A DNA stretch of 64,000 nt from Eledone cirrhosa (taxonomy: Eukaryota), in the NCBI GenBank assembly GCA_964016885.1, contig OZ024747.1:992001-1056000 (forward strand), read 5' to 3'. Positions 147 through 60,850 of this stretch are shown in pieces. Every line of letters begins with the position of its first letter. Position 1 is the stretch's first letter. The position numbers were made by a program, and so were the translations under genes. The notes below the pieces were generated by a model. That model did no database searches. It had not been told where the DNA came from and saw nothing but the letters and a program-made list of their open reading frames with translations.

Positions 147-1916
147 ATGGATGCCATTTCCACCTCGCACACTGTCGTGAGTGCCACGCCCACTAAGAAA
201 AGTGGTGGAGGGAAGGTAGGAGTGCAAAGCTTGCAGCCGTCCCCCCTCGCATCATCGAAAAACGTGGAAAATATCGAAACCGCGAAACCAAATCCGGCAA
301 ATAATAGCAGCACCAACAACAAGAACAATGACAACAACACCACAACCAACAACTGCAACAATAGCAACACCAATATTACCAACAGTGACAGTAACACGAA
401 AGACAACAACACCAAAACAACATTTGCACAGACCGTAAAAAAAAACGAACTATACACGCCAATAGACATAACAAATGCTAAACAACTATTACAAGACGCA
501 AAACAATTCGTGACTTTTGGTGAAAACGGTGCTTTTAGCATTAATTCTCCACAGGAATTACGTAGAGAGGCTGTCCTGAAAACTGTGGTTTTCAGGACAA
601 TATCGAACGTAACAAGAAAACCAGCTCAATTATCACAAAATGAAATTGAGCTGGTTCTAAAAGACGCAATGAAGGACTTAACCTTCATACAAAAAGGTAA
701 ACTGTTTGGTAGCATTTCGGTGCTGATGAACAACCAGTCAACAGCACAAAAGTACTCGATAGCACCCATTGTGTCCCCCCCCCCCACTTCACCTTTTACC
801 CCACATACAGGGGGAAAAGGACACAAAGAATAAAAATAATGAGTATCACACCAAATGTAAACATTTGGTGGATACTATGTGGAATAATAAACTTTGACGA
901 AGACAAGATAATTTCAATAGGAAAGTCCTCCGGAGGTGTATTTGGTGGGACCACAGTAGAAGTTCTGGTGCAAATGAGCCCAGAACGAATAGCGAATATC
1001 CCACAACGCATGCCTCTGGACGGGCTAACTTATATAAACATTTCAGTGGAGGGAAGGCGGCCGTCATGTTTCCACTGCTTAAGCAGGGGTCACCTGAGGG
1101 CTGCCTGTCCTCAATTAACGAGTAAAAAAAAAAGGTTCTTCTGCCAACCCCGAACACAACAACACAACCACCACCACCAGCACCACCACAACAACACGGA
1201 AAAATAACAACACAAAACACTGTTCCACCCAACCCCTCCCCACCTAAAACAAATACAAAAGCAACCACAACAAAACCCCAAAATATACCCTTCCCCAACA
1301 ACACGGAAGAAGACTCCGTATCAACGTCACCCAGTGACGACGAACCCTTTCAACAGGTGAAAAGAAAAAAAAAAGGCACCACATTAACAAAAATGCCACA
1401 AACACACAGCCACCAGCACAAACAGAACAAACATCACAAATAAAAAAAACCACCCCTCCCCAAAACATAACACGTACTATAAAACGCAAACACCCGCAAG
1501 AACAACAAACAAAAACAAACACAACACAACAAAAACTCTATACATACATTAACAAGAACAATAAAACGTTGATGAAAGCGATAGAAAATAACCCTTCGGT
1601 GGAAACCGAAGGGATCACTTTCACCTACGCAGCGAACAAACCGCACCTAATGATGATTAGGGTCCCAACGGAAACCTATGTAACTTTGAAAAAGAACCAT
1701 CCAATGCATGTGGGGACCAACTGCACCAAACCACATAACAGCGTCCTATTGAGATGTTTCCCCACCCCCACACCAGACACCCACACCCCACCAAACACCC
1801 TAATCCCACCACACACTGATGTCCTCACCCCACCACAAACCACCACCCCACCAAACAACCCTTCCAACACCCCCATGGAAATTGTGCAGCCTGGCCCCCA
1901 GGAGACGAAGAGGTAA
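147..1916 (+). pseudogene. LINE ORF1 (Asn/Thr-rich N-terminus, CCHC zinc knuckle), frameshifted
   Basis: CFHCLSRGHLRAAC knuckle. Frame breaks at homopolymers C11 (~775-785) and A10 (~1124-1133). The restored frame FYPTYRGKRTQRIKI matches copy 2 MYPCHMGKRTARLRI. Confidence 0.8.
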
Positions 1917-1958
1917 GTAATTTCCTTTCCTCTTCCTTTTTACCTCTTCAGCACCAAC

Positions 1959-4900
1959 ATGGCCAATATAAGAGTTGGATGTGTGAATGCACGCGGCTTG
2001 GGGATGTCCTGGAAAAAGGGCAAACTCTTAAATGACCTCAGGTCGCATAGAGTGGATGTAATGGTTATTTGCGAGTCCAGGATCAGCAGCGAGCGCCAAC
2101 TGGCCCCCATCTTCGACGACTTTGAGATCTACGCATCTCTCTGTCAGCCGAGGGGTGGGGGTGGGGTTGTCGTTCTGCTGCGAAAATACCTGGGTCTTGC
2201 CACACAGAAGGTACACCTGGACCCGGAGGGTCGACTGGTGGTTTTAGACGTCGGCAGTGGTGAAGGTGGAGCTTTCAGGCTGGTGGCAGCGTATGCCCCA
2301 TCGGGGACACCGCGACCAGACTTCTTCCGACGCCTGGAGAATTTCCTGGGAACGTCTCGCTCCTTGCTTTTAGTGGGGGACTGGAATGGTATCCTGGATG
2401 TACGTTGGGACTATGTAGGGGCATGTCCCGATAGAGGGGGTTGTAACAGCCTCAAACGATTAATCGGCCGATTTGATCTGGCCGATAGATATCGACTGGA
2501 TTTTCCGCCTGTGCCACGGTGGACGTGGAGTAATCGCAGTGGAACATCCAGGTCGTACCTAGATAGGTTCCTAGTTAGAAATAAGGATAGGGCCATATTA
2601 AGCTGTCCACGAATGTTCATGGTTGACTATTCGGATCACAAGTTGTTGACCGGAGTGGTCAACCGTGATAGAACTCATAGACAGGGACCCGGTTACTGGA
2701 AGCTGAACTTGTCTTTACCGACAAACAAAGCTTACAGTAAGCGGATTAGCACACTAGTTAAGCAGCGTTTGACGGGGGCAATTGTCAACAACAGGTGGTG
2801 GGGCTCTCTCAAGAGAGAAATTAGAATAGAATCGATAGGTTTTAGTCGGGAATTAGCATCAGATAGGAATAGAACTGAAAGGGAATTAACAAATAGAGTA
2901 GAAGAGGCGATTAGGAGTGGCAACGTGGCCGGCGTGCTGGCATCAAGAACGGCCCTAGACCAGTTCTTTGATGCGAAGCACGAGGGCTGCGTTGTCAGGA
3001 GTAAAATACGTGCTCTGGGTAACGAGGGAGCCAAAGCTGTTAGCTGGGCCCGAGTGACAGAGGCAAAAAGTGGAAACAAGTCCACGATTCGGTCTTTGAA
3101 GGACCAGGATGGACGCGTGATCCTTGAACCTGAGCGGATGAGCGCGGCCTTTCAACGGCGCTTTGCACGACTGTTCGGGAGGGGCGGCGTGCCGGGTGGG
3201 GCCATGGATTTCGGTCCATACCTCGACGGTCTGGCGCGGCTCTCGGACGGGGAGGCGAAGTCCTGCGAGAGGCCGATTTCAGCCGCTGAAATAGGGGAAG
3301 CGCTGAGCCAATGCGGCAAACGCAAATCTCCGGGTCTCGATGGTCTACCATACGAACTTTATGTAGCGATGCCGGGCTTGTTCTCCGGTCTCCTCGAGGC
3401 GGTCTACTGCAACTGGCAACAGAACGGGAGAATTCCCAGTTCTGTGACCAAGGGCGTAGTCACGCTGGTGAGGAAGGACGAGAACAAGGGGTATGACATA
3501 GATAACTTCAGGCCCATAACTCTGCTAAACACAGAGTTAAAGATTTTGGCCAAGGTGTTAGCGAAGAGGTTGGCGCTTGTCGTCGGGAACCTGGTGGGAG
3601 AAGCGCAGACATGCGCAATCCCGTCCAGGTCCATACACGACAACCTCCACCTCATGCGATACATCGTAGAGAGGGTAGGGAACGAACCCGGCTTTGGTGG
3701 GGCCCTGATCAACTTGGATCAATCTAAAGCGTTCGATAGGGTTGACCATCGGTACCTGGATGCGGTGCTCGTGGCGGCAGGCTTCGGACCCGTTTTCAGG
3801 GGCTGAATTGCTGCAATGCACAGCAGCAACACCTGCTCGAGGGTCAAGGTGAACGGCTACCTCTCGGAGCCGTTCCAAATCACGCGATCCATTCGACAGG
3901 GATGCCCTCTCTCCTCCCTCCTGTATGTGCTGGCTCTCGAGCCACTACTGAGGAAGCTGGAGCTGTTGCAGGGCATCCCCTTGGAACCGGGATTGCGGAA
4001 AGCGGTGTCGGCCTACGCCGATGACGTGACAGTAATGGTGTCGTGCGCCTCGGAAATCGCGCAGATCGGCACCTTACTGGAGGAATATGAAAGGTTCACA
4101 GGAGCCAAGCTGAACCGGGACAAGTCCGTCGGTTTGCAACTCGGGACGTGGAGGGGCAAAACGATGCCCTCCGACGGCATCGTCGGACGCTGGACGGAGG
4201 GACCGGTGAAGCTGCTCGGGGTCTGGTTCGGACCGGACCTCCAGGTGGAGAAAAACTGGGACGAGGTAACGGGCAAGGTGTTTGCACTCGCCCAGAAGTG
4301 GGCCGAGTGCAAACTATCCCTGAAAGGTCGAGCGGAGGTGGCGAACGCTTATATAGCATCCGTCATCTACTACCGCTTGACCGTCGTGCCTTGCCCAGAG
4401 AAAACACTCGCCAAAATGGAGTGCGCGCTCTTCCGATTTCTTTGGAAGAAGCGGGCTCCTTTGGTGAGAAGATCCATCTGCTGTCAACACCCTTCGAACG
4501 GAGGGCTGGGGATGCCGTGGCTGACGATGCGTAGACACGCATTAAGGCTACGGCACCTCCAGGTATTCCTCACCGGTCAGCCGGTGTGGGCCCTGTTTGT
4601 GAGGCGAGCCTTTCCGAGACTCGTCTCACTCACCGAGCTGCAATCCTGGGTCAAGCAAAGACCGAGAAAAGTGGGCGACTGGCACATTGAATGTGCCCAG
4701 GCGCTCACGGCCCTCTGGCAAGCGGATCCGGCAATCAGTGGAGACTCAACCTCAACATTCTATAGAGGGTTGGTGCGCAGTAAGTGCGACGACGCTCTCG
4801 GAGAGGCTCTGGGCATGGAGGAAGACGAGCTGGCCAGTCTGTTCGGTAGGACGTTTGGCCCGGGACCAATGGACAACTTCCAAAAGTCCCTGGCTTGGCA

Positions 4901-5396
4901 ATGTTACCGAGGAGCTCTACCCGTTCGGGACAAGCTCTACAGACACGGGCGCCCGGCTAGGGACCCCTCGAAGAAGATCTGTCCAAGATGCGTGCGGGAC
5001 GAAGAAACCGTCGCACACGCATTCGTACACTGCCCGGGCGTTGCTGACCTGTGGGGCTATGTAGAACGACGACTGTCGCGGGTGGGACCAATCCGGTTGA
5101 CCACCGAGAACATTGTCACAATCAAACCGCCTCCCCCTTTCAAAAACGAAGGAGAGGCGGTTTTCCTCTGTGTGATAGCCATGGCGAAAGAAGTTGTATG
5201 GTGGACAAGGTTGAAAGGGCTGAGGTCAGACACCTATCTCTCCGGCCAACAACTGGTCTTTTTTTTCAAGTACCACTTTAGAAGAAGGATCAGAATGGAG
5301 AGAGAGGTGCTCTACCCCAGCAAGTTTTATGAAAGATGGGTGAAAGTAGCGAGAATGGCCCGAGTGAATGGGCCTTCTCTCTATATCAGCCTGTAG
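1959..5396 (+). pseudogene. LINE ORF2 (APE endonuclease - reverse transcriptase - zinc finger) with a single in-frame stop
   Basis: Endonuclease motifs VGDWN, SYLDRFL, SDH; RT motifs FRPITLLN, DQSKAFD, RQGCPLS, YADD; CPRC...HAFVHC. ORFs 1959-3806 and 3816-5396 are in the same frame, separated by TGA 3804-3806 where copies 2 and 3 encode Trp. Confidence 0.95.
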
Positions 5397-6542: not shown

Positions 6543-7149
6543 ATGGTGGCTGCCAACTCGTTTTCGAGTACGGCCACTACTTTATATCCATGTAAGAGAA
6601 CCTCTACCGATGCGCTGAACAAGTGTGACTTTTTAGTCCAGCCAGCGACTTGAAAACTCTGGTACAAACACTACACTTGTGACAATTATTGACACATAGT
6701 GCTGGGCCCATGGTACCATGTGACAAGTGCAGAGAGATCTCCAGATATAAAGCAATGCCTGTGCCGTGAAGCTTTTATAGTGAGCAAAGGCACTGCACAA
6801 AGCCAGTCCCGCTCTCTTAACCAAGATGATATTTACCAAAAAGAAGAACAAGTCAACATCATTGGATACCATCAGAGTTGCAGGTGTTATATCAGAGTTT
6901 TCCTTCTTTTAGAATTGTCCCTGACAAAGGCTAAGGGGTCATCTCTCCTGGTGATTTTGGATGGCCATTGACTCTTAAGAGCTCCTTTGCCCTTTGACAG
7001 GTTTTGTTTTTAGTCCTGCAGGATGTCCAAAGTCACCCTCCTCACCAAGAAACCTTGGTGGGGTTGCCAGTTTAGTCGCCAACGACCCGACAATGAGACA
7101 GGTTGTACTGGGATACATGTTACCATTAGCACCAATTGGTGACCTGACA
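6543..7149 (-). mobile_element. Non-autonomous RTE-derived retroelement of about 600 bp (copy 1)
   Basis: Near-identical to 49843-50396 and 54769-55363. The 3' part encodes an RTE-like terminal C2H2 finger ([17 protein letters not shown]) and ends in an (ATGT)n-type tail. Confidence 0.75.
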
Positions 7150-9509: not shown

Positions 9510-9557
<48 letters not shown>

Positions 9558-9589
9558 ATAAATGGAAACTATCTTTATAAAGCCATATT

Positions 9590-9650
9590 TATTTTATTAT
9601 ATATATTTTAAGGGTACCAGTATTTTGGTACGCTATCGTCAGATAAAATA
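9590..9650 (-). ncRNA. Type I hammerhead ribozyme, mutated (GAAA to AAAA), in a Penelope pLTR fragment
   Basis: tattttat-CTGACGA-stem II-AAAA-tatata-TA-ataaaata; homologous to the intact motif at 25093-25157. Confidence 0.7.
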
Positions 9651-9729
9651 CAATAATCGGTTTACAGATAAGGACATATATTTACATATGAACTTAATGT
9701 TATGAGTTCCATGTAAATATATAAATATA

Positions 9730-9870
9730 TCCAGAATTAGCCGTCGAAACGGCTTGAGCTCAGCCGTCGGGGTCTTACTGGTTCCTATTACCCACTCTAC
9801 TACCCTAAGTATTGAGTACTTTAGTGCGTTATGGTCCACCTGGTTCCTTACCACATTTCCTTCGTTATAT
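9730..9870 (+). mobile_element. Penelope pLTR fragment carrying the 3' half of an HHR, inverted relative to 9891-9941
   Basis: tagccgtc-GAAA-cggc...gccg-TC-ggggtc; same family as 31427-31626 and 60637-60772. Confidence 0.7.
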
Positions 9871-9890
9871 AAATATATATATATAGGAGA

Positions 9891-11135
9891 AAGTATGACC
9901 CCGGCGGCAGAGCTCAAGCCGTTTCGACGGCTATTTCTGGACTAAAGTAAGAGTTTTTCGTCTGGTAAATAAATAGCCGAACTTTTCAAGGGGTACTTCC
10001 TTATATGGGAAGATTGTAGTTGTCAAGAGGAAAGGTCAAAATTTGTAGCAGACACAGACACGTCTATCATGGCAGTGGGGGTGGCTGAACTTGCCTGTAG
10101 AACGATAGTGGAGTGGGTAGAGCCGGTCAAACGTTGAAGGTGAAATCTATACGGCAAATTCTAAGGAATGTGTATGAAAGTAGGCCAGGGGAGGTAGGTG
10201 AAAAAAGTTTTTTTTTTAGAAAAAGGAGGAGGGACATTATAGAATTGGTAAATCAAATGAGATTAGGAGACAATGAAAAAATATAAAAAAGAATATAATA
10301 AAAAATGAGAGAAAGATGTATCAGAATGTAAGATTGGAAAGTGAGAAGTGAAATAAAACAAAAACTAAGAAGTCTAACACAGCTGCTATATTTAGTTGGT
10401 TCTGCTTTTTCGGCCAATGCTATAGAATGAGTTGCTAGATGAGAATGATTGAAAATTGGGTATTAAAAATTAATACAACATCTCTGGGGTCTAACACAGC
10501 TGCTATGAATAGTTAGTATAGCGTAATCGGCGAATGCTATCTGTAAGTTACTGGGGTGGGGGTACTGAGGCCAAAGGGGCCCGGTGGGCTGCCTCGGGGT
10601 AGGCGAAAGGGAAAAAAACCCAAAAAAACGAACGAGGAAGAAGTTCGGTGGTGGAAAGAAGTGATAGGAGGAGACAAAGGGAAGAAGAAAACACAGAGGA
10701 AAAGAGAAGAGGTACATCTACCTACATCAGTTGGAGTTTCCCCTATCTTATTCGGCAAGTGGGGTGTTTCAGCCCTTGTCTACGCACCCGGATCGTTAGG
10801 GGGTTTGATGGCGAGGTAAGTCTTCCGCAATCTGTGTTTGCATGCAGTTACCAGTTCGTCTTTTTTGTTTAGGCGTTGACCCTTCGTAAACAGCATTTGT
10901 AATGTTTCCTCCGAGCATAAGTTACACGGACGGCGTCCTCCCGTGTAAGAGTTAGCTCTGGGCAGTAAGCTCCAAGTAAGATACATTGCTGTTGAAGAGG
11001 GAAAGCTTCGGGCTTACGGCAAGAGCACCCTGGTGGGGTGTTGCTCTTAGAGCTGTTGGTGATGTGGGCCTTCATGTTCTTAGCGCAGGAGTATCCTAGT
11101 TTTACTTTATGTCGGAGCCACGTATAGTCCCTCAA
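9891..11135 (-). mobile_element. Penelope-like element 3' fragment (deleted GIY-YIG region, 3' UTR, degenerate HHR)
   Basis: Translates KVKLGYSCAKNM...CSCRKPEAFPLQQQC, then LTWSLL...CNLCSEE...LNKKDELVTACKH, paralleling the C-terminus of the 26177-28130 ORF. HHR-like fold at 9891-9998. Confidence 0.75.
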
Positions 11136-17650: not shown

Positions 17651-21235
<3,585 letters not shown>

Positions 21236-21530
21236 ATAAAAACAAATAACGAAACGAAATTAAATTTCGTTTCATTTGTAACTCACTTTTGTATGACTGA
21301 CGCTTAAACAATTAAGTTAAAGATGTACATCCATATATGTATACTGAAATACTAGTATGTATATGAATACACACACGTATACATATGTAGATGTACCAAG
21401 TTTTTCACTGGTCACTTTACTGTGAGTGGCCAGCTATTCTGTATGTAAACACACAGACAAACCGGTTTTTAGAGTCATACTGGTTTTTGAGGAAACACCT
21501 TTCCTCTATTCTCCAGAAAGCCAGACAAGG

Positions 21531-21575
21531 AATATTGAACTAGTTTCGTTGTTGTTACAACTCATCAGCAATATT
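21531..21575 (-). ncRNA. Minimal type I hammerhead ribozyme (467 family, inverted copy)
   Basis: Exact reverse complement of 21855-21899. Confidence 0.88.
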
Positions 21576-21854
21576 TACCTATCTTCCGGCCTCTCTAGAG
21601 AATACATACTAGTATTTCAGTATACATATATGGATGTACATCTTTAACTTAATTGTTTAAGCGTCAGTCATACAAAAGTGAGTTACAAATGAAACGAAAT
21701 TTAATTTCGTTTCGTTATTTGTTTTTATCGTCTCCGTTGAACCGGTACTTACTCACACTCTATGCAAATTAGTATGCCCACTACTAATTTTCATAGAAAA
21801 AGCATATAACGATATGTGCTTTTACGATTCTCTAGAGAGGCCGGAAGATAGGTA

Positions 21855-21899
21855 AATATTGCTGATGAGTTGTAACAACAACGAAACTAGTTCAATATT
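21855..21899 (+). ncRNA. Minimal type I hammerhead ribozyme (467 family)
   Basis: aatattg-CTGATGA-gttgt(aaca)acaac-GAAA-ctag-TT-caatatt: 7-bp stem I, 5-bp stem II, palindromic stem III, GUU site. Confidence 0.9.
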
Positions 21900-22321
21900 C
21901 CTTGTCTGGCTTTCTGGAGAATAGAGGAAAGGTGTTTCCTCAAAAACCAGTATGACTCTAAAAACCGGTTTGTCTGTGTGTTTACATACAGAATAGCTGG
22001 CCACTCACAGTAAAGTGACCAGTGAAAAAACTTGGTACATCTACATATGTATACGTGTGTGTATTCATATACATACTAGTATTTCAGTATACATATATGG
22101 ATGTACATCTTTAACTTAATTGTTTAAGCGTCAGTCATACAAAAGTGAGTTACAAATGAAACGAAATTTAATTTCGTTTCGTTATTTGTTTTTATCGTCT
22201 CCGTTGAACCGGTACTTACTCACACTCTATGCAAATTAGTATGCCCACTACTAATTTTCATAGAAAAAGCATATAACGATATGTGCTTTTACGATTCTCT
22301 AGAGAGGCCGGAAGATAGGTA

Positions 22322-22366
22322 AATATTGCTGATGAGTTGTAACAACAACGAAACTAGTTCAATATT
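22322..22366 (+). ncRNA. Minimal type I hammerhead ribozyme (467 family)
   Basis: Identical to 21855-21899. Confidence 0.9.
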
Positions 22367-22589
22367 CCTTGTCTGGCTTTCTGGAGAATAGAGGAAAGGT
22401 GTTTCCTCAAAAACCAGTATGACTCTAAAAACCGGTTTGTCTGTGTGTTTACATACAGAATAGCTGGCCACTCACAGTAAAGTGACCAGTGAAAAAACTT
22501 GGTACATCTACATATGTATACGTGTGTGTATTCATATACATACTAGTATTTCAGTATACATATATGGATGTACATCTTTAACTTAATTG

Positions 22590-25049
<2,460 letters not shown>

Positions 25050-25057
25050 AATGATAT

Positions 25058-28000
25058 TAAATAAATGGAAACTATATTTATAAAACCATATTTATTTTAT
25101 TATATATATTTCAAGGGTAACCAAAACAACATTGGTACGCTTTCATCAGATAAAATACAAAGTTTGTTTTATAAATAGAGGCATACCCATGAAAATAATA
25201 CCTTATCGGTTGGAAATTCACTGGATAGTAGTATTATATTAGAGATTATTCAAACTTATGTGTGAATATGCAAATGAATATGTAAATAATTGAAAAACAA
25301 CCGTTTATTTACATGACACTGGAGAAAAAGAGAGAGAGAAAAAATATAAGGGGATAAAGATAAAAAATATTACGAGAGAGATAGAGAGAAGAAATAGACA
25401 AGAGAAGATGAATATAACGTTAATTTGGGGGAAATATATTCTAAGTATAAATCTAATATGTGTATTTACGATTATTCGTTGTTTAAAATTCGTTTCTAAT
25501 ATATTTTCTGTTATAAGTAGATAGATAAATAAATAAATAAATAAATAAATAGATAGATAAATAAATGAATAGATGGGTATATCGTGTTATAGATAATTGT
25601 TTTAATGAGTTATGAGGGTATTGGTTTTGTATTTAATGTAAGTAAATATTAAGTTAAATTAAATTAAATTAACTGAGTTAATAAGAATATTTATATTTAT
25701 ATATTTTAAAATGGGAAGATACGGAAAAACTCCAGTTTTGTTTATTTATTCGTTAGTATGAGACTATTTTGTTAACATAAGTATAAATGTTGAAAGATTT
25801 AGTTAGTGGTTATAAATCTAATAAAAGATATTGAAAAAATATTAAAAATTTGAGAAAATTAAAAAAAAAAAAAATTTATAAAGATAAGTAATTTTAAAAA
25901 AATAAGTAATTTTTAAAAAGGGATAAAAAGATTAAAGAAATAAAAAATAAAAAATTAAGAATTAAAAATTATTAAGATTAAAATAACAATTAAAATTACA
26001 ATTAAAATAACATTTTTTTTTTTTTTTAAATTAGAATTATATATGTATATATTTTATGAAACTTTACGAAGTGAAATTATAGCAAATGTTATAGATATGA
26101 TTTAGAGAAATCAATATATTAAAACCAAGTGGATAAGATGTTATGGAAATAAGTAGAAATATTATAAGTGTAATTATAATTTATATATAGTTCTAAATGT
26201 TGAATTCAGGCGATGTCTACAAGAACTAAATAAATTCGTTCTTAGATTAATAGAGTTCTTACATTTAAGTATAAAAAAAATTTCCTCAACACGCAATTTG
26301 CAGAATCTAAATAAAGCTGTGTTTCAATACGCGGGTGCTTCGAAATTATTTCCCAAGTTAATGAAAAGTCCATATTTTTGCATTTTAAGTTCCATATCAG
26401 GTTTGAAAGAGAAGTTGAAGATTTATCAAATCTTTGGAAAGAGCATTTGTGATTATTCCAGCGTCTTTTAAATTCTGTAGAAGTTGCACCTACATAGTTA
26501 AATATATTATCACTGGTTTTAACTGTACATTTATAGACCACGTCCTTATCTAAACACTTATTTTGTAAAGGACAGTTTAATTTAATTCTACAGTTACATT
26601 TTGCGGAGTTGTTATTCAGAACGGTATTATTATGTTGGATATTGCTAGAGATATTACTGCTATTTTGGTTATTTTGGTTAGGGTTTAAATTTCTATTATT
26701 GATTCTATTTATATTTTGTGCTATGTTCATAGTAGTAGAGTAGGATAGTTTTATAGTATGTCTGTTAAAGATTGAGTTGTATCTGTGGGCTTTAGGAAAA
26801 CATTTATCTAGTGCTTTAAAGAATAGCTTTGCTAAAGGTGTTTTAACGCTTAATGAGAATGGGGGTGAGTACCAAATAATATTTCTAGTTCCATTTCTTC
26901 TGTTAGTTTTAGAGTTTAAGTTAGATATTTTTAATTATAATTATAATTAATAGTAGGGTTATTTGCCTTATTACTGTTGTCGATGTATTTAATCTTATTT
27001 ATATAGCCTGCTCTATTTAAAGCTTCATTATAATATTCTGCCTTATCGTCAAAAATGTTTTTATTAGCGGAGATGCGTGAAATATGTTGTTGGATAGAAT
27101 TAACAATAGTGTTCTTGATAGATTTAGGATGATTAGAGTTAAAACTTACATAGTTTAGATTCTCATTAATTTTATGGAATGGACAGTAGAGCCCTGTGTT
27201 AAGGTTTAATGTTACGTTTAAAAAGTTAACAATTGTATAGTTATTCTCTATTTCTAACTTAAGGTTGTAGCTATTGAAGAATTGTATTATGGATTTTCTT
27301 CTTCTATTAATTTCACAATTACTATGATTTTCAATTAAAAGCAGCATATCATCACGATATAAACCACTGGTCATCTCTGGTATTTTTCTATGCAGTGTAT
27401 TATTAATAAATAGCCCCACAAGATCCGTTATTTGCGCCGAGTCTGATGATCCCATGGTGATATCAAAATTATTTTTTCTATCGGCTCTAGTCCAGAGATG
27501 ATTGTTGAATTCAATTAAAGTTTTCCGTGCGGTTAAAAGATATGCATTTCTTCGCTAGATAAATCTGTATGTTTAGATGCATAGATAAGAGCTTTATTAA
27601 GTAAATTAGGAGTAATGGAGGAGTAGTAGTTTGCTATATCCAATTGAATGAATTTTTTGTTATGTTTAAATTTTATGTTATTGAACCAATCTATAACTTC
27701 GTTAGTACCGTTCCATAGTTTTAGGTAAGCTATTTATTTAAGTTGCGGTATGATTCTATCTAATATATGTTTACTAACTATGCCTAAGTCTGATTTAGAT
27801 GGTGCTGTAAGTCTGACTAGTAGTTCTATTTCAAAGTTTCTTTTGTGGTCTTTCAGGTTAATTTTTGGTCTTCTAGGTATAAAGGGTTCGGTCCTATTTT
27901 CGATGCCTAATTTATGAATTATTTCAGAAGCTTCTCTATTTACCATTTCAAGATCTTCATTAGTTGTTATTTTGTAGTTTTTCCTTAGTTCTTTCAATAT

Positions 28001-28130
28001 AAGGTTATTGTATTCGTCCTTTTGCATTCCGTATAGATTGTTAGTTTTGTCAGATTTTACGAGGATTTTCTCAGTTTTTTCAAGATTGTCTATATTATTC
28101 TTAAGGCCTTTAAGGTATTCCTTAATTTAT
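25058..28130 (-). mobile_element. Penelope-like element, 5'-truncated and frameshifted (RT + C-terminal GIY-YIG endonuclease, 3' UTR/pLTR with HHR)
   Basis: RT pieces PKINLKDHK, ITMGSSDSAQITDLVGL, GLYRDD; linker CNCR...CPLQNKC; GIY-YIG VVYKCTV...YVGAT...FKRRWNNH; terminal LFSSCRHRL ending at about 26177. Confidence 0.9.
25093..25157 (-). ncRNA. Type I hammerhead ribozyme in the Penelope 3' pLTR
   Basis: tattttat-CTGATGA-aagcgtacca...tggttaccctt-GAAA-tatata-TA-ataaaata. Confidence 0.85.
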
Positions 28131-29987: not shown

Positions 29988-30174
29988 GGGCGGTGGATTG
30001 GCAGTATAGGTAGAGGGTCTGACGTCATGCTTTGCAGCAGAGAGTTACAGCCCTTTATGGTCTCAGTTCAAATCCCGCCGAGGTTAACTTTGCCTTTCAT
30101 CCTTACGGGGTCGATAAAATAAAGTACCAGTAATGCACTGGGGTAATTGCTGGCCTTGTGCCAAAAGTAGAAAC

Positions 30175-30281: not shown

Positions 30282-30337
30282 ACTGCCTGATGAGGTCATA
30301 GCCATTCAATGGCTATCATCGAAATATATATAGCAGT
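30282..30337 (+). ncRNA. Minimal type I hammerhead ribozyme
   Basis: actgc-CTGATGA-ggtc atagccat(tca)atggctat catc-GAAA-tatata-TA-gcagt. Confidence 0.8.
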
Positions 30338-30429: not shown

Positions 30430-30525
30430 CAGGGTGTCCCAAAAAATTTGACATCATTGAGCTAGACTTAGTAGTTTTCGAGATATTTGCTTTTAAAATG
30501 ATGTCAAATTTTTTGGGACACCCTG
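30430..30525. mobile_element. Tc1/mariner-type MITE, 96 bp
   Basis: Perfect 29-bp TIRs CAGGGTGTCCCAAAAAATTTGACATCATT with TA on both sides. Confidence 0.9.
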
Positions 30526-30532
30526 TAGATAC

Positions 30533-30710: not shown

Positions 30711-30820
30711 ATAATAAAGTATATATCCCTACACGCAAAAACCGTCTAGGGACACATGTATTGTCCAACCATATGCCAATGTGGTTCAATGGCAGGTTAA
30801 TAAATTAACGAGCCAGAACA

Positions 30821-31144
30821 TATATAATCAAGGTTTAGCAAATAAGAAAAAGTTTCAAAATAAATTTTAAAAGATTCACTGTACTCACTATGGTTACCTT
30901 TACCGAATCGGTTTCGAGTCTCAAAAATAAATGGACAGTCCCTGCGGCCTTCCATTGTAAAGATAAACTCTCGTCAGAAGGGTCTTTTCACTCGGAGAAT
31001 ATAAAATTCCCGAGTTCAAATTACGAACTGTCCATTTATTTTTGAGACTCGAAACCGATTCGGTAAAGGTAACCATAGTGAGTACAGTGAATTTTTTAAA
31101 ATTTATTTTGAAACTTTTTCTTATTTGCTAAACCTTGATTATAT
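30821..31144. repeat. Inverted repeat with about 118-bp arms (30821-30939 / 31027-31144), Penelope pLTR-like
   Basis: Arms are near-perfect reverse complements and overlap an HHR. Confidence 0.9.
30897..30981 (-). ncRNA. Type I hammerhead ribozyme with long stem II
   Basis: cctt-CTGACGA-gagtt...gactc-GAAA-ccg(att)cgg-TA-aagg; GUA site. Confidence 0.75.
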
Positions 31145-31391
31145 ATTATATATATACATATATTATATATATATATATATTATATATATACATATATACA
31201 TATATATATATATTATTTATATACATATATTATATATATATTATATATACATATATTATATATATATATTATTTATTTGTATATATTATATACATATATT
31301 ATATATATATTATATATATACATATATTATATATATACATATATATACATATATTATATATATATTATATATATACATATATTATATATAC

Positions 31392-31426
<35 letters not shown>

Positions 31427-31433
<7 letters not shown>

Positions 31434-31626
31434 CGAAGGAATTGTGGTAAGGAACCAGATGGACCATAACGCACCAAAGTACTCAATACTTAGGGTAGTA
31501 GAGTGGGTAATAGGAACAAGTATGACCCCGACGACAGAGCTCAAGCCGTTTCGACGGCTATTTCTGTCCAGAAATAGCCGTCGAAACGGCTTGAGCTCTG
31601 CCGTCGTGGGTCATACTTGTTCCTAT
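31427..31626 (-). mobile_element. Penelope pLTR fragment ending in a palindrome of about 115 bp centred at about 31567
   Basis: Same family as 9730-9870; the fold-back centre is the HHR stem II. Confidence 0.75.
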
Positions 31627-31695: not shown

Positions 31696-31895
31696 NNNNN
31701 NNNNNNNNNNNNNNNNNNNNNNNNNNNNNNNNNNNNNNNNNNNNNNNNNNNNNNNNNNNNNNNNNNNNNNNNNNNNNNNNNNNNNNNNNNNNNNNNNNNN
31801 NNNNNNNNNNNNNNNNNNNNNNNNNNNNNNNNNNNNNNNNNNNNNNNNNNNNNNNNNNNNNNNNNNNNNNNNNNNNNNNNNNNNNNNNNNNNNNN
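31696..31895. other. Assembly gap (200 N)
   Basis: N run. Confidence 1.
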
Positions 31896-37196: not shown

Positions 37197-37265
37197 GTAT
37201 ATATATGTAGCGGCGATGAATTAGTTTTGCGAGGTTTTTTATATGAAATCGTGTGTCGAAACAGA

Positions 37266-38011
37266 TATTGTTATATTTGGGGAGGGTCATATTTGCGTAA
37301 TATTGCCAGAATTAATAACAGAACACACTCACTGTTTGGTTGGTTTTCGCTTCTCGCTGTCTTTTATATATATATATATCTGCGATCTAACTTACTCGGT
37401 CCTCAATGTTGCTATTGACTGACCGGCGGTCAAAAATAATACAGATACAATATAGACAAACACATATATATATAGTTTACATAATTTACATAAATCTTTC
37501 GTTGCACATCTGCAACAAAATTAAATTAAATAAAATAAGATAAATAAATACATACACAAGCACATAAACACACACTAGTCACCCAGCAGACACAACACTA
37601 TACACACTAGTCACACATCACACATAACACTATACACACACGCAAACGCATGCGCAAAGAAGACAAAATAAAATAAGATAAACAAACAAGCAAATAAATA
37701 AATAAATATATAGACAGACTGAACAAAAAAGGAGGAACAATGAATATAACACCACTGACGATGTTGCAGATGTGCAACGAAAGATTTATGTAAATTATGT
37801 AAACTATATATATATGTGTTTGTCTATATTGTATCTGTATTATTTTTGACCGCCGGTCAGTCAATGGCAACATTGAGGACCGAGTAAGTTAGATCGCAGA
37901 TATATATATATAAAAGACAGCGAGAAGCGAAAACCAACCAAACAGTGAGTGTGTTCTGTTATTAATTCTGGCAATATTACGCAAATATGACCCTCCCCAA
38001 ATATAACAATA
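37266..38011. repeat. Inverted repeat with about 250-bp arms (37266-37517 / 37762-38011) between (TA)n arrays
   Basis: Arms are near-perfect reverse complements. Confidence 0.9.
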
Positions 38012-38025
38012 TATATATGTATATA

Positions 38026-39522: not shown

Positions 39523-41201
<1,679 letters not shown>

Positions 41202-41485: not shown

Positions 41486-41548
<63 letters not shown>

Positions 41549-41874
41549 AGTTGAAAAAAATGAAAACGAAATTTCATTTCTCACTCTTAGTATAGCACTT
41601 ACTTAAATGTAAGTATGTATGTATACGTACATACATATATGTATACAGACGTACAGTAGCATGCATATATATACATATATATATATATACATATATATAC
41701 ATACATATACATATATACATACAGGTACACATACATATATGCACGCATCAGTTTAGCGGACGTTTATTACAACGCCGCTTTGTTCGTTTGTTTGTCAACA
41801 AACCGAACAGCCTGAATTTATGCCATACGGTGTTAAGGCAACCACGTCACCTTTTTGTTCAACATTGACACAGG

Positions 41875-41919
41875 AACGATGTACTAGTTTCAAGCTTGTT
41901 AGCTATCATCAGCACCGTT
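41875..41919 (-). ncRNA. Minimal type I hammerhead ribozyme (492 family)
   Basis: aacggtg-CTGATGA-tagct(aaca)agctt-GAAA-ctag-TA-catcgtt; GUA site. Confidence 0.88.
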
Positions 41920-42366
41920 TACCCATCTGCCAGATAGTTGAACGTTCGAAAGTATATACTTTCCTTATGAAAATTAACGGCTGAGCAGCCTAATTTGCAT
42001 ATTGAGTGAGTTAAATCGGTCAGGCATACCGAAAACGATAAGTTGAAAAAAATGAAAACGAAATTTCATTTCTCACTCTTAGTATAGCACTTACTTAAAT
42101 GTAAGTATGTATGTATACGTACATACATATATGTATACAGACGTACAGTAGCATGCATATATATACATATATATATATATACATATATATACATACATAT
42201 ACATATATACATACAGGTACACATACATATATGCACGCATCAGTTTAGCGGACGTTTATTACAACGCCGCTTTGTTCGTTTGTTTGTCAACAAACCGAAC
42301 AGCCTGAATTTATGCCATACGGTGTTAAGGCAACCACGTCACCTTTTTGTTCAACATTGACACAGG

Positions 42367-42411
42367 AACGATGTACTAGTTTCAAGCTTGTTAGCTATCA
42401 TCAGCACCGTT
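42367..42411 (-). ncRNA. Minimal type I hammerhead ribozyme (492 family)
   Basis: Identical to 41875-41919. Confidence 0.88.
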
Positions 42412-42858
42412 TACCCATCTGCCAGATAGTTGAACGTTCGAAAGTATATACTTTCCTTATGAAAATTAACGGCTGAGCAGCCTAATTTGCATATTGAGTG
42501 AGTTAAATCGGTCAGGCATACCGAAAACGATAAGTTGAAAAAAATGAAAACGAAATTTCATTTCTCACTCTTAGTATAGCACTTACTTAAATGTAAGTAT
42601 GTATGTATACGTACATACATATATGTATACAGACGTACAGTAGCATGCATATATATACATATATATATATATACATATATATACATACATATACATATAT
42701 ACATACAGGTACACATACATATATGCACGCATCAGTTTAGCGGACGTTTATTACAACGCCGCTTTGTTCGTTTGTTTGTCAACAAACCGAACAGCCTGAA
42801 TTTATGCCATACGGTGTTAAGGCAACCACGTCACCTTTTTGTTCAACATTGACACAGG

Positions 42859-42903
42859 AACGATGTACTAGTTTCAAGCTTGTTAGCTATCATCAGCACC
42901 GTT
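42859..42903 (-). ncRNA. Minimal type I hammerhead ribozyme (492 family)
   Basis: Identical to 41875-41919. Confidence 0.88.
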
Positions 42904-43026
42904 TACCCATCTGCCAGATAGTTGAACGTTCGAAAGTATATACTTTCCTTATGAAAATTAACGGCTGAGCAGCCTAATTTGCATATTGAGTGAGTTAAAT
43001 CGGTCAGGCATACCGAAAACGATAAG

Positions 43027-43063
<37 letters not shown>

Positions 43064-43188
43064 TATACATATATATATATATACATATATATATATACAT
43101 ATATATACATATATATATACATATATATATATATACATATATATATACATATATATATATATACATATATATATATACATATATATAC

Positions 43189-43287
<99 letters not shown>

Positions 43288-43288
43288 C

Positions 43289-43320
<32 letters not shown>

Positions 43321-43369
43321 GTATATATATGTATATATATATATATATATATGTATGTATATATATATA

Positions 43370-43408
<39 letters not shown>

Positions 43409-43427
43409 ATATGTATATAGGTATATA

Positions 43428-43479
<52 letters not shown>

Positions 43480-43489
43480 TAGGTATATA

Positions 43490-43545
<56 letters not shown>

Positions 43546-43644
43546 GGTATATATATATATGTATATATATATATATCTATATATATATAGGTATATATAT
43601 GTATATATATATATAGGTATATATATATGTATATATATATATAT

Positions 43645-43726
<82 letters not shown>

Positions 43727-43744
43727 TAGTAACACAACAGTTAG

Positions 43745-44008
<264 letters not shown>

Positions 44009-44970: not shown

Positions 44971-47900
44971 TCCGGGTTAAGTTTTGCTCCCGTCACCTTT
45001 CATATTCCTCCAATAAGTTGCCGACCACCTCGATTTCTGAGGTGTCCGACACCATCACGGTGATGTCGTCCGCATAAGCCGACACAGCCTTTCCGCGTCC
45101 CGGTTCGAGCGGGAGGCCCTGCAACAGCTCTAGCTTCCGCAGTAAAGGCTTGAGAGTCAATACGCACAGAAGGGAGGAGAGAGGGCACCCTTGACGGACC
45201 GATCGCGAGACCTGAAACGGTTCCGAGAGGTGGCCATTAATTTTGACCACCGAGCAGGTACCGCTGTGCATTGCAGCGATCCAGCTTCTGAAGACGGGGC
45301 CGAAGCCAGCTGCCTTGAGGACAGCCTCCAAGTACCGATGGTCGACCCTATCGAATGGTTTCTATTGATCTAAATTGATCAGAGCCCCACCGAAGCCAGG
45401 TTTACACCCTATCCTCTCTATGATGTATCGCATTAGGTGGAGGTTGTCGTGTATGGACCTGGTTGGAAGTGCGCAAGTTTGCGCCTCCCCAACCAAATCC
45501 CCGACGACAAGCGCCAACCTCTTCGCTAACACCCTGGGCCTGAAATTGTCTAATGTGTCCCTCTTGTTCTCGTCTTTCCTTATCAGCGTCACTACGCCCC
45601 GGCTCACAGTACTGGGAATACTCCCGTTCTGCTGCCAGTTGCAGTAGAGCGCTTCGAGGAGATTGGAGAATAAGTCCGGCATATTTACGTAAAGCTCGTA
45701 GGGCAGACAATCCAAACCGGGTCACTTGCGCCTCATGCGCCTCATGAATCTCGGCTGAAGTAATTGGCCTTTCGCAGCGTCCAGCATCGGCCGTCGAGAG
45801 TTGCGGCAAGCCATCGATGTAGGGACTGAAGTCTGCCACCGTCTCTGACCCGCCACTTCCCCCGAACAACCGAGCAAAATGTTGACGAAAGGCCTCACAC
45901 ATCCGCTTGGAATCGCTCAGCTCGTGTTCATCTCGGTCCATCAAAGACCGAATCGTGGTTTTATTACCACGCTGCGCCTCTGCCACGCAGGCCCATCGAA
46001 CAGCTTTGGTTCCCTCGTTTCTCAGAGCACGCGCCTTTGCTCTGACAATGCAACCTTCGTGTTTCGCATTGAAGAAATGGTCTAATGCCATTCTCGCCGC
46101 TAGCACGTTAGTTGCAATGCCACTACAAATAGCCTCGTCTAACTTATCTACAAACTCCCCTTCCTTTCTATTTTTCTCTAACGCTACTTCTTTGCTAAAC
46201 TCTATCGACATTACTCTAATCTCTCTTTTGAGAGCCCCCACCACCTATTGTTGACGACTCCCCCGTCAACCTTTTCTTAACTAAATTGTTGACCTGGTCC
46301 CTGTAAGCCTGACGTGCCGGAAATGACATGTTCAGCTTCCAGTAACCAGGTCCTAACCTACGCGTCTTATCTAGGTCGACCATACAGATCACAAACTTGT
46401 GACCTGAATAGCCGACCGTGCGGTTAGTCCAGGTCCACACTGGCGCATTAGGGAAATCTAGTCGGTACCTGTCAGACAGTTGGAACTGGCTGATTAGGTT
46501 CTTGAGGCCTTTGCACCCCCTGCTTCTATCGGATACTCCCACACAGTCCCAGCGTACGTCTAAAATGCCGTTCCAGTCCCCCGCTAACAGTAAAGGGCGA
46601 GACGTACCCAGAAAGGCTTCCAGGCGTCTAAAGAAGTCCGGCCGTCCTGCCCCAGTAGGAGCGTAGACAGCCACCAGTCGAAAGGCACCACCTTCGCTAT
46701 CGAAGATCGACCTTACCTCGAGATCCAGGCCTTTCCTAAACAGCACTGCCACCCCACCCCCCATTCTCGGCCGACTAGCAGATGCAAAGATCTGATAGTC
46801 GTCGAAAATGGGGGCTAGTGCGCGCGTGTCGGAAATCCTGGTCTCGCTGACGGCACTTACATCCATTTCTAGAGATCTGAGGTCGTTGAGCAGGTGACCT
46901 TGCTTCCAGGACGATCCCAGGCCTCGAACATTTAAACTTCATACTCTTAATACGACCATGTTGGCAGGATAAAAGAGAGAGAGGAAAGGTTTACTTACCT
47001 TCCGGGCTCTTGTGAAGGTCGGGTGGTTCGACCTCCATAGTTGGTGGGGTTTCTTTTGGGAACCCCTTTAAAAGTCTTGAAGTGGGTTTTACGTTCGAGG
47101 TTCCCACGTCCCGAGGAAAGCTAGCTGTCTCGTATCTCTTTGAATAAATCGAGCGACATTCGCACCAGAAACAAATCTTCCGGCACGCGAAATATGCTTG
47201 ATTTAAAAATTTCCCCCTCTTTTTGTATATCTTCACTTCGTACTACGAGGGCCATCAGCTCCTTATTGGCCCTCCTGGCGAGCACGAAGTTTTGTATGTT
47301 TTGTTGGTGTGATTTTATTTGTTTGCGTGGCTGTGGTAGTGATGGTTTTGATGGTGTTGTTTCGGTTGTGTCTGTGTTTGTTGTGAGTGTGGTGTCTGCT
47401 GTTTCAGATGTTTGTGTGTGTATTTGTTCTTGCGTCTGTTTAGGTTGTTTGCGTTTGGGGAGGTGATGGTGGTGTTGATGTTGGTGAGATGTTTGCGTGG
47501 GTGGTGTCTGCATTTTTTATTGTGGGTGTTTTTGTGCTTTGTTGAGTTTTGTTTTTCTTTTTGTGTATTTTGGGGGATTTTGGTTTTCCCTCATCTTCAC
47601 TACTGGTAGATGAGGGGTCTGTGTCTGTAAGTGTGTCTGTGTGTGTGTTTATGTTTTTATTGAAGCTTTTATTTGGAGGGGGGGGGGGGCGAATTTGACA
47701 ACTTTCCTCGTTTCCCCACTGGATGGTCAATGTTGGTGGTGGTCTTTCTATTGGTGTTGTTGCTGGTGTTGGTTGTGGTCCTCGCCCCGGCGTCGGCAGC
47801 AGTAGAGCCCTTCGACCCCCTTGAATCTTTCAGCAGTTGAGGGCAGAAGGCTCGCAAATGGGTTTTTTTCCCCACAAACAAAACAATGCGACCTTTTGCC

Positions 47901-49352: not shown

Positions 49353-49454
49353 ACTTACACAACAAGAAAATATTCAATAAATAAGTTTTGACAGGTAAAT
49401 AAATAAACTTACGAGAGCGAGAAAAAGACGTCCGTTCAGACCCAATAATAATAA

Positions 49455-49565
49455 TAATTGTTTCTACTTTAGGCACAAGGCCAGCAATATCCCAGTGCAT
49501 TACTGGTACTTTATTTTATCGACCTCGTAAGGATGAAAAGCAAAGTCAACCTCGGCGGGATTTGA
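49455..49565 (-). mobile_element. SINE fragment (same family as 29988-30180)
   Basis: Reverse complement of the core and tail. Confidence 0.75.
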
Positions 49566-49842
49566 ATAATAATAATAATGTCTCTCAGATTCTCTCCGTC
49601 ACTCTCTCTTTATGTGTATATATATGTATGTATATATATATATATATATGTATATATATGTGTATATATGTATGTATATATATATATATGTATATATATG
49701 TATATATATGTATATATATATATGTATATATATGTGTATATATGTATCTATGTATATATATATATATATGTATATATATGTATCCATATATGTATATATA
49801 TATATATGTGTGTATATATATGTATGTATATATATATATACA

Positions 49843-50396
49843 CATGGTCGGGTCGTTGGCGACTAAACTGGCAACTCCACCAAGGTTTCTTGGTGAGGAG
49901 GGTGACTTTGGACATCCTGCAGGACTAAAAACAAAACCTGTCAAAGGGCAAAGAGCTCTTAAGAGTCAATGGCTATCCAAAATCACCGGAAGAGATGACC
50001 CCTTAGCCTTTGTCAAGGCAGAATTCTAGGAGAAGGAAAACTCTGATATAACACCTGCAACCCTGATGGTATCCAATGATGTTGACTTGTTCTTCTTTTT
50101 GGTAAATATCATCTTGGTTAAGAGAGTGGGACTGGCTTTGTGCAGTGCCTTTGCTCACTATAAAAGCTTCACGGCACAGGCATTGCTTTATATCTGGAGA
50201 TCTCTGCACTTGTCGTCACATTGTACCATGGGCCCAACACTATGTGTCAATAATTGTCACAAGTGTAGTGTTTGTACCAGAGTTTTCAAGTCGCTGGCTG
50301 GACTAAAAAGTCACACTCGTTCAGCGCATTGGTAGGAGTTCTCCTACATGGATATAAAGTAGTGGCCGTACTCGAGGACGAGTTGGCAACCACCAT
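49843..50396 (+). mobile_element. Non-autonomous RTE-derived element (copy 2, 5'-shortened)
   Basis: Near-identical to 6543-7149; C2H2 motif [22 protein letters not shown] at 50264-50329. Confidence 0.75.
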
Positions 50397-51148
50397 ATGT
50401 ATATATATGTATATATATGTATGTATATATATGTATATATATGTATGTATATATATGTATATATATGTGTATATATATATATGTGTATATATATGTATGT
50501 ATATATATATATGTATATATATATATGTATATATATGTATATATATATATGTATGTATATATGTATATATATGTATGCATATATGTATGTATATATATAT
50601 ATATAGAGAGAGAGAGACGCCATGACAGTAATATGTCAGACGAGGTCAACCAGTGCACCTTATGTCCACTACGTCTACCACTTGTCTGGTCACTGTTCAG
50701 CCTTTATCACATTATTTCTCACTTCTTCCCCCGCACCCTCACTCACTCTCCCTTCTCTTCACCCCCCCCTCTCCCTCTGTGTATATATATATTATAAATA
50801 GTCGGGACCCCGGCAGCTGAGCTCTTGCCGTTTCAGCAGCTAGTTCCAGACTGAGTTTGTAATATAACCAAACTCTACTACCCCAAGTATCGAGTACTCT
50901 GTTGAGTAATGGTCTAACCAGTTTCGAGTTCAAATCCCACCGAAGACAACTTTGCCTTTCATCCGTTCAAGGTCAATAAGTACCAGTGATGTACTGGGTC
51001 GATTCTTCCTCTATATCTCTTTCTATCTTTCTCTGGAATAAATCTGCTGTATTCAGGCCTGGAGAGGGATCGGCTGTCAGGCTTTAAATGTCCAAGAAAC
51101 GCCGTATGACAATATGGCGCCTGTACGACTCTATCGGGAGTTTTGGGT

Positions 51149-53139: not shown

Positions 53140-53462
53140 GTTCCGAGGTTAACTTTGCCTTTCATCCTTACGGGGTCGATAAAATAAAGTACCGGTAATA
53201 CACTGGGTTGTTTTAATCGGCTTTTTCCTCCCCCCAAATTGCTGAATTTGTACCAAAAGTAGAAACCATTATTGCAGTGGATTGGCAGTATCGGTAGAGG
53301 GTCGGACGCCATGCTTTCTAGCATAGTTAGGTCCCTTTACGATCTGAGTTCAAATCCCGTCGAGGTTGACTATGCTTTTCATCCTTACGAGGTCGATAAA
53401 ATAAAGTACCAGTCACGCACTGGGTAATTGCTGGCTTTGTGCCTAAAGTAGAAACCATTATT
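53140..53462 (+). mobile_element. Two head-to-tail SINE copies
   Basis: The core and the tail ccaaaagtagaaaccattatt occur twice; the second copy has A and B boxes. Confidence 0.8.
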
Positions 53463-53718
53463 GCAGTTATGTAACAATGATTTAGACACCACCAAGACCT
53501 CTATTTACTGATACAGTATTTCTTGTTATATTCTAAATTTCAGCCAACTCAAACTACTATCCATTTAATAGTAAATTTTGTAAATATAGTCTAATAAATT
53601 CCACTTTTACATGAGTCTATACAGTATATATACATACATGCGCATATATATATACATATATGCGCATATATATATATATATACATACATGCGCATATATA
53701 TATTCATATATATACACA

Positions 53719-60636: not shown

Positions 60637-60772
60637 TCCTGAAATAGCCGTCGAAACGGCTTGAGCTCTGCCGTCGGGGTCATACTTTTTCCTATTTCCC
60701 ACTCTACTACTTTAAGTATTGAGTACTATGGTGCGTGTGGCCCATTTGGTTCCTTACCACAATTCCTTTGTC
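60637..60772 (+). mobile_element. Penelope pLTR fragment beginning inside HHR stem II
   Basis: gaaatagccgtc-GAAA-cggc...gccg-TC-ggggtcatac; same family as 9730 and 31427. Confidence 0.7.

Positions 60773-60850
<78 letters not shown>

Follow-up and report, generated by a model that had tools for sequence, protein, structure and literature searches.

What produced the short inverted segment at positions 21236 to 21603 of a 64,000-nucleotide stretch of the Eledone cirrhosa genome (contig OZ024747.1, positions 992,001 to 1,056,000; hereafter the window)? A sequence-only reading took the segment for the retro-copy of a terminated transcript and, on that basis, for independent support of a promoter and a terminator within the repeat unit. 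The segment is indeed a copy: its 368 bp are the reverse complement of the 369 bp at 21827-22195, with 368 of 369 positions matching, far above chance. The sole difference between the inverted and direct sequences is a 1-nt deletion (A6 to A5) at ~22030. Self-comparison was by whole-window BLAST with TA repeats masked, as the unmasked comparison was swamped by TA repeats. The reported landmarks were also found in place, with the segment starting 22 nt after the start of the TATA-like box (TATAAC at 21805, segment from 21827) and with the octamer ATGCAAAT (21762 and 22229) falling outside it. An end at the T5 run was claimed as well. The run lies at 22189-22193, but the end of the copy is blurred and may fall anywhere in 22192-22195, because its last 3 nt (ATA on the plus strand, 21236-21238) also match the TA target.

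The inverted segment is one arm of a single insertion in (TA)n (Table 1). Its two arms stand head to head, with both 3' ends pointing outward into a C-interrupted (TA)n tract, an arrangement that we refer to as tails-out. The overlap between the arms covers 127 nt of unit sequence, and the direct arm's 3' end falls 72 nt short of that of the inverted arm; this difference constitutes the tail. Microhomology amounts to 3 nt at the left junction, 2 nt at the inner junction and 1 nt at the right junction, and the 5' end of the inverted arm can be placed only within 21827-21829 because the 2-nt AT is shared with the direct arm. The direct arm holds the octamer and TATA-like blocks twice and reads through T5 twice. 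Because the right arm is longer and contains sequence absent from the left arm, we reject simple fold-back of a cDNA at this locus. Ends generated at the hammerhead cleavage site are ruled out, as none of the four arm ends (unit positions 99, 341, 395 and 467) lies at unit position 164. Each of the two inner ends coincides with the first base of a helix strand; structure-determined stops are only suggestive because 22.5% of positions qualify when microhomology is allowed (0.05 for both ends). Palindromes of 10 bp adjoin both inner ends, with 5% of positions qualifying.

Table 1. Coordinates of the insertion, its sequence features and related elements (positions in the window)
Feature	Position	Strand	Details
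Inverted (left) arm	21236..21603	-	Spans positions 99-467 of the 467-bp retrozyme unit; TTTTTAT at its 3' end abuts (TA)n; 5' end truncated at base of hammerhead outer helix
Direct (right) arm	21602..22590	+	2.12 identical 467-bp units, unit position 341 to 395
Type I hammerhead, inverted arm	21531..21575	-	Predicted cleavage after 21538; Rfam HH9 and descriptor
Type I hammerhead, direct arm, first	21855..21899	+	GUU site with cleavage predicted after 21892; stem I AATATTG/CAATATT, CUGAUGA, stem II GTTGT/ACAAC, GAAA, palindromic ACUAGU stem III
Type I hammerhead, direct arm, second	22322..22366	+	Predicted cleavage after 22359
Octamer hairpin	21759..21797	+	Base pairing of TATGCAAATTAG and CTAATTTTCATA on either side of a C-U mismatch; second copy 22226-22264
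TATA-like-box hairpin	21798..21823	+	TATAAC at 21805 is the apex; second copy 22265-22290
Outer helix around hammerhead domain	21827..21922	+	Unit 99-110 pairs with 183-194
T-run-spanning helix	22145..22223	+	GTGAGT (22145-22150) / ACTCAC (22218-22223)
Apparent ~2.2-kb target-site duplication, left copy	19003..21238	+	C-interrupted (TA)n; boundaries approximate
Apparent target-site duplication, right copy	22590..24819	+	Begins at right junction; end approximate
492-bp retrozyme array	41546..43028	-	3.01 identical units in (TA)n
Hammerheads of the 492-bp array	41912, 42404, 42896		GUA site; helix order as in the 467-bp unit
Four further tails-out inversions in TA tracts	37210-38012, 43724-43841, 30727-31146, 31432-31626		Whole or partial hammerhead motifs
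Decayed autonomous Penelope-like element, Hydra-clade motifs	25049..28130	-	3' hammerhead at 25149; 5' boundary approximate

Each 467-bp unit, and each unit of a 492-bp array elsewhere in the window, carries a type I hammerhead ribozyme. With 37.7 bits and E = 1.3e-7, the Rfam HH9 match to the hammerhead of the 467-bp unit stays under the gathering score of 52. A descriptor of hammerhead pairing matched 11 times in the window, compared with no match in 29 of 30 block shuffles and one in the remaining shuffle. Six of these 11 matches belong to the two families, three in the 467-bp insertion (21862 and 22329 on the plus strand, 21568 on the minus strand) and three in the 492-bp array. The palindromic ACUAGU of stem III suggests cleavage as a dimer (PMC4209133), and the GUU site with its short stem III predicts weak cleavage of the monomer, whose active fold was evaluated at +0.1 kcal/mol. 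Further type I hammerheads of different sequence were seen at 30287 (+), 36589 (+), 34147 (-) and 30977 (-), with weaker ones at 8366 (-) and ~33175 (+), mostly just upstream of a TA tract. Rfam matches to miRNAs (mir-297, MIR7723 and others) were rejected; they fall below the gathering score and stem from TA repeats or from the inversion.

The units are small (467 and 492 bp) and non-coding, with a GC content of 0.35 (below 50%) and no LTR, and no ORF of 100 aa lies inside them except for frames entering from the TA tracts. The hammerhead is present in every tandem unit, over at least two consecutive units. The monomers are predicted to be highly self-paired (67-69% of bases, z from -9.6 to -11.2 with 60 dinucleotide shuffles each). 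By the sequence criteria given in PMC7229834 and bioRxiv 10.64898/2026.07.22.740005, both units are non-LTR retrozymes. They resemble the metazoan non-LTR retrozymes of these two sources (Cervera and de la Pena 2020; Li et al. 2026) in their short tandem units with a type I hammerhead, strong self-pairing, lack of an ORF and co-occurrence with Penelope-like elements (PLEs). They are longer than the 170-400 nt stated in PMC7229834, and their sizes fall inside the range of 51-972 reported by Li et al. 2026. In the 492-bp unit, stem II has a U-U mismatch at its base, a feature also described for the axolotl HHR_Amex2. Among the matches listed, no paper dealt with cephalopod retrozymes, and the available portion of the 2026 survey names no cephalopod among its groups. 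The retrozyme descriptions in the accessible parts of PMC7229834 and 10.64898/2026.07.22.740005 contain no inverted arms, reverse transcription start sites or kilobase duplications.

Inverted arms and internal starts of reverse transcription are familiar from PLEs. According to PMC8557442 (Craig et al. 2021), a PLE copy is usually a partial tandem that adjoins an inverted, 5'-truncated copy and has a tail of 30-40 bp at one end, and the Hydra and Naiad clades target (TA)n; the supplement records (TA)n targets for Hydra-1_Obim of Octopus bimaculoides and for octopus Naiads. In Frangieh et al. 2024 (PMC11167929), a PLE protein in purified form nicked both strands and extended them, and it began reverse transcription at two sites inside the RNA, which set the limits of the tail. 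The insertion in E. cirrhosa likewise joins a partial tandem to an inverted 5'-truncated copy in a (TA)n target, and it shares with the PLEs of these two papers the tail at one end, the hammerhead in the repeat and two apparent internal reverse transcription starts. Unlike these PLEs, its unit has no ORF and its tail is 72 nt rather than 30-40 bp; its flanks also carry an apparent duplication of ~2.2 kb.

Of the seven candidate inversions in the window, five are tails-out pairs, whose tails measure 21, 55, 72, 78 and 93 nt; the four loci other than the 467-bp insertion span 21-93 nt. The two dropped candidates were a tail-to-tail pair at 9.7k and an inversion at 57.6k that has no hammerhead match and lies outside TA. 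The four comparison inversions, in three of which the hammerhead is partial and was judged by eye, each show two different 3' ends, none at a T-run. At all five loci the longer tail is on the left, minus-strand arm (two-sided chance ~0.06). In a third family, the 3' end is of the long kind in three copies and of the short kind in two. Hammerhead 3' halves form a family with copies at 9730-9868, 9887-9941, 31432-31626 and 60637-60775 and a degenerate one at 50800-50920. All five begin at nearly the same position, a few bases around a site immediately upstream of GAAAC; they lack the CUGA box, and each stops at either of two points ~80 nt from each other. The 5' end that they have in common may correspond to the loop of a long stem II.

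A decayed autonomous PLE, an example of the sort of helper present, ends in the same TA tract as the insertion. It was recognised by a tblastn match (E = 1e-69), by its three-frame translation and by a match to Pfam PF01541 that was below the cut-off (E = 8e-4). Motifs read by eye agree with the Hydra clade, with DKT, a CxCx5C linker, a C-terminal GIY-YIG, no CCHH, a hammerhead, a (TA)n target and a length of ~3 kb or less; an RWK motif was not seen in the translation of 25049-28130. Because the unit has no sequence match at E<=1e-4 to this neighbouring PLE in the window, a helper can only be inferred, and it would most likely be a PLE of the Hydra clade. Counting against that assignment, octopus Naiads also target (TA)n, and LINEs are present in the window. 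In the decayed PLE the octamer occurs at 25268 and the ATTTTCAT word at 25189, not in the hairpin arrangement. A second remnant (9556-10980, minus strand) resembles this PLE at the 3' end and includes part of an endonuclease at 10831-10980.

Other repeats in the window were noted alongside these. LINE copies with AP endonuclease and reverse transcriptase lie at 1338-5396 (+), with one in-frame stop at ~3806, at 44971-47000 (-), at 62028-64000 (+) and at 39600-40972 (-), the last ending at the TA tract beside the 492-bp array; the best named relatives of a LINE reverse transcriptase in the window are Argonauta hians proteins (60-63% identity), which points to a probable octopod host. A ~550-bp element without a hammerhead match occurs in three copies that are 95-97% identical (6551-7104, 49847-50388 and 54797-55354) and adjoin TA or TATG repeats. 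Copies of a short interspersed repeat, which we take to resemble octopus tRNA-derived SINEs, are found at 29990-30170, 49453-49566, 50926-50999 and 53143-53467. Small elements with terminal inverted repeats (30430-30528 and 57581-58103) are probably MITEs. A run of N at 31697-31895 marks an assembly gap.

The apparent kilobase-scale duplication of the flanks is the most unusual feature of the insertion. When the two flanks were aligned as tokens, 91 of 123 were exact, with 11 gaps and a score of 188.5, compared with at most 18 across 20 shuffles and with 14-16 in a further two controls. The copies are colinear but differ in many TA counts; recombination or misassembly could also have produced them. 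They look like a target-site duplication of ~2.2 kb, and since they are bounded by both junctions, they suggest that the two arms arose in one event from two staggered nicks. A duplication running from junction to junction was present at one of three loci tested. At the 37k locus the flanks scored 20.5 (control maximum 11.5), with a match that does not abut the junction, and at the 492-bp array no flank duplication was found (score 2.5, control maximum 4). In the TA tract between that array and the 43.7k element (43029-43723), the interruptions change from C to G at ~43320.

Among the matches listed, no paper reported kilobase target-site duplications for PLEs. Long ones are described for the Dualen LINE (Dualen-4b), with a median of 900 bp (PMC9977147). 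In twin and dual priming of L1 (PMC2837659), two inverted cDNA arms lie inside a target-site duplication, as they appear to do here. The arms of the 467-bp insertion overlap by 127 nt where those show an internal deletion, lack a poly(A) tail and point to a tandem or circular non-coding RNA template.

An origin in DNA alone would be very improbable. The inversion would then have come from template switching during repair or replication of a fragile TA tract, after or apart from the insertion, or the locus, flank duplication included, would be an assembly artefact. Microhomology at the inner junction is what template switching leads one to expect, the units are 100% identical within kilobases of low-complexity DNA, and the flank copies vary in TA counts with 11 gaps. 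Such an origin is countered by the end of the inverted arm, which falls at the same TTAT/CG (the slash marking the end point) as in the independent 492-bp array, by four unrelated loci with tails-out geometry, and by a flank duplication bounded by both junctions, as two staggered nicks predict.

Aligned over 431 columns, the 467- and 492-bp units are 70% identical and thus homologous, and both families have their 3' end at the homologous TTAT/CG. Consistent with the sequence-only reading, both ends of the 492-bp array lie close behind its T7 run (unit 478-484): the array begins 2 nt after the run, at 486, and stops 8 nt after it, at 492. The array comprises three units plus 7 nt, such that it starts and ends at nearly one unit position (chance ~0.035). 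These near-coincident ends fit whole turns on a circular template, and later expansion of a monomer would fit too.

Helix order is identical in the folds of the two units. Ten helices comprise 62 pairs, of which 42 are the same in both units, 4 are changed on one side, 16 on both sides and none is broken; the absence of broken pairs is partly by construction, because the helices were hand-anchored after each unit was folded and only two sequences were compared. In hammerhead stems I and II, 6 of 10 pairs are altered on both sides. RNAalifold on an automatic alignment returned 40 pairs, 10 with changes on both sides, and recovered the hammerhead and the octamer hairpin; the TATA hairpin and the T-run-spanning helix were not recovered on that alignment. 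The blocks that resemble promoter elements are parts of this predicted structure. The octamer block and the TAATTTTCATA block form the two arms of one hairpin, in which 10 of 11 pairs are invariant between families, and this invariant core fits DNA recognition equally well as RNA pairing. The TATA-like motif (TATAAC in one family, TATATA in the other) sits at the apex of a second hairpin (pairing probability 0.96), with two of its six pairs altered on both sides relative to the 492-bp unit. The first base of the outer helix, 21827, is the 5' end of the inverted arm. Near the 3' end of the unit, the GTGAGT/ACTCAC helix closes over a hairpin (22155-22183), T5 and the TTAT/CG end point, with a pairing probability for GTGAG/CTCAC of 0.91 (0.92 for the homologue in the 492-bp unit). 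A helix over the T-run needs read-through or a circular RNA. Since the promoter-like blocks are hairpins kept in both families, and a helix spans the T-run, the RNA under selection appears to include the putative promoter.

We then considered whether the copies record a promoter-to-terminator RNA. Copies of such an RNA should end in the T-run and lack the promoter. Five of the six T-run passes in the two families are read through, and the sixth, in the inverted arm, is ambiguous, leaving one pass in six compatible with termination; the promoter-like blocks occur five times within copies. Among 14 3' ends, several of them placed by eye, at least four T lie in the last 15 nt in three cases, and at the junction only in the arm of the 467-bp insertion. 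One of three 5' ends lies near the TATA-like box, and under uniform placement the probability of at least one is 0.07-0.23 (windows of 11-40 nt). In promoters of the U6 type the distance from TATA to the start is usually ~30 nt; here the motif lies 22-24 nt from the 5' end of the arm. The distance from the motif to the outer helix is 23 nt in the 467-bp unit and 14 nt in the 492-bp unit, so a fixed start at +22 would cut the 5' strand of the covarying helix in the latter. No extra untemplated G, the signature of a cap, is present at the 5' junction. What stands from the sequence-only reading is a reverse-transcribed copy with a non-random 3' end; a promoter-to-terminator RNA is not supported, and the inverted segment is not independent support for that model. 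The 492-bp array, which had been called in as further support, argues against it: its 5' end is at a T-run rather than at a start site, and the 5 templated nt (CAACT) that it retains past T7 mean that it did not end there. Beginning at a T-run and holding the promoter-like blocks three times, it did not come from an RNA running from start site to terminator.

A promoter within the unit is plausible, and it forms the core of a competing account that we consider unlikely. A repaired form of the sequence-only reading, it gives the retrozyme a leaky T5 terminator and a promoter of either the snRNA type or Pol III type 3, made up of octamer, PSE-like block and TATA, and lets a reverse transcriptase dimer use two RNAs (dual priming). 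The left arm would be a run-off copy of the terminated RNA from start site to U5, and the right arm a copy of a circle or a read-through multimer, an assignment just as doubtful. Several features speak for it. The octamer ATGCAAAT, also one arm of its hairpin, stands at the equivalent position in both families, and it and the TAATTTTCATA block are identical in both; octamer and TATA motif are spaced 42 nt apart in one and 43 nt in the other. A run of at least five T occurs once per unit, at the 3' end, and the body contains no T4 run. Unit positions 99-465 fold as a self-contained domain that opens with the terminal helix, and the left junction is compatible with a U4-5 end. The newt satellite 2 promoter includes an octamer. 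Internal promoters are present in newt satellite 2 and in the hammerhead repeats of schistosomes, of the snRNA (Pol II) type in newt and Pol III in schistosome (as cited in PMC2220036), whereas the promoter of the 467- and 492-bp units is putative. In snRNA-type units the PSE lies 40-70 bp upstream of the start site (PMC9652321), and the order of elements is given in PMC9652321 and PMC11340601. Dual and twin priming cannot be told apart by sequence, according to PMC2837659.

Read-through at five of six T-runs, the poor fit of the 5' ends, the short TATA distance, the loss of the outer-helix strand that equal spacing would cause in the 492-bp unit, and the missing G all weigh against this account. 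So does the T4 depletion, which is not significant under dinucleotide shuffles (0.065-0.075 for the 467-bp unit, 0.28-0.81 for the 492-bp unit); across shuffle types (5000 shuffles per control), the probability of no T4 in the body was 0.05-0.08 and 0.04-0.81, respectively. Moreover, with a Pol II promoter of the snRNA type, the T-run would be irrelevant as a terminator. Among the matches listed, no cephalopod PSE consensus was found in the literature, and no snRNA or tRNA genes were seen in the window. A scan with bacterial models, which do not suit a eukaryote and carry no weight here, returned no promoters and six hairpin-plus-T sites. An extended form of this account is similarly unlikely: octopod retrozymes would carry a doubly coded promoter, read as octamer and TATA in DNA and as hairpins in RNA, together with a leaky terminator, and would produce a terminated linear RNA and a promoter-bearing circle, each primed by a PLE dimer at nicks kilobases apart in (TA)n, with duplication of the microsatellite. 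If it were true, the two arms would record the start site and the two reverse transcription start sites of an unseen RNA, and retrozyme and PLE activity would help to expand the TA tracts of such genomes.

The ends of the inverted segment are better explained by PLE pasting than by a promoter and terminator. We consider it quite likely that 21236-22590 arose in a single recent event, as a non-autonomous hammerhead retroelement pasted into (TA)n by the reverse transcriptase/GIY-YIG protein of a PLE. The unit would be transcribed as multimers that hammerheads cut to monomers, probably as dimers through ACUAGU. The cut monomers may then be ligated to circles, a template suggested by the copies of 2.12 and 3.01 units. 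The PLE protein would nick both strands of (TA)n ~2.2 kb apart, as the duplication suggests, and each nick would prime cDNA at an internal RNA site whose position we read from the arm ends. One candidate site is UUAU, which is left unpaired in the junction that the GUGAG/CUCAC helix closes; the other would lie 72 nt upstream. One cDNA would reach 368 nt and stop where the hammerhead helix has its base, while the other would run for 2.1 turns. Joining of the cDNAs through AT, followed by fill-in, would duplicate the DNA between the nicks. With internal priming and a truncated cDNA, the 3' end of a copy marks a start site of reverse transcription, and its 5' end a truncation.

A retrozyme bearing the insertion signature of PLEs supports the published proposal that PLEs mobilise animal retrozymes. 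The comparison of the two families points to a conserved RNA junction at TTAT/CG as a candidate start site for reverse transcription. If real, the ~2.2-kb duplication far exceeds usual target-site duplications and would give these elements a route to lengthen their own TA targets.
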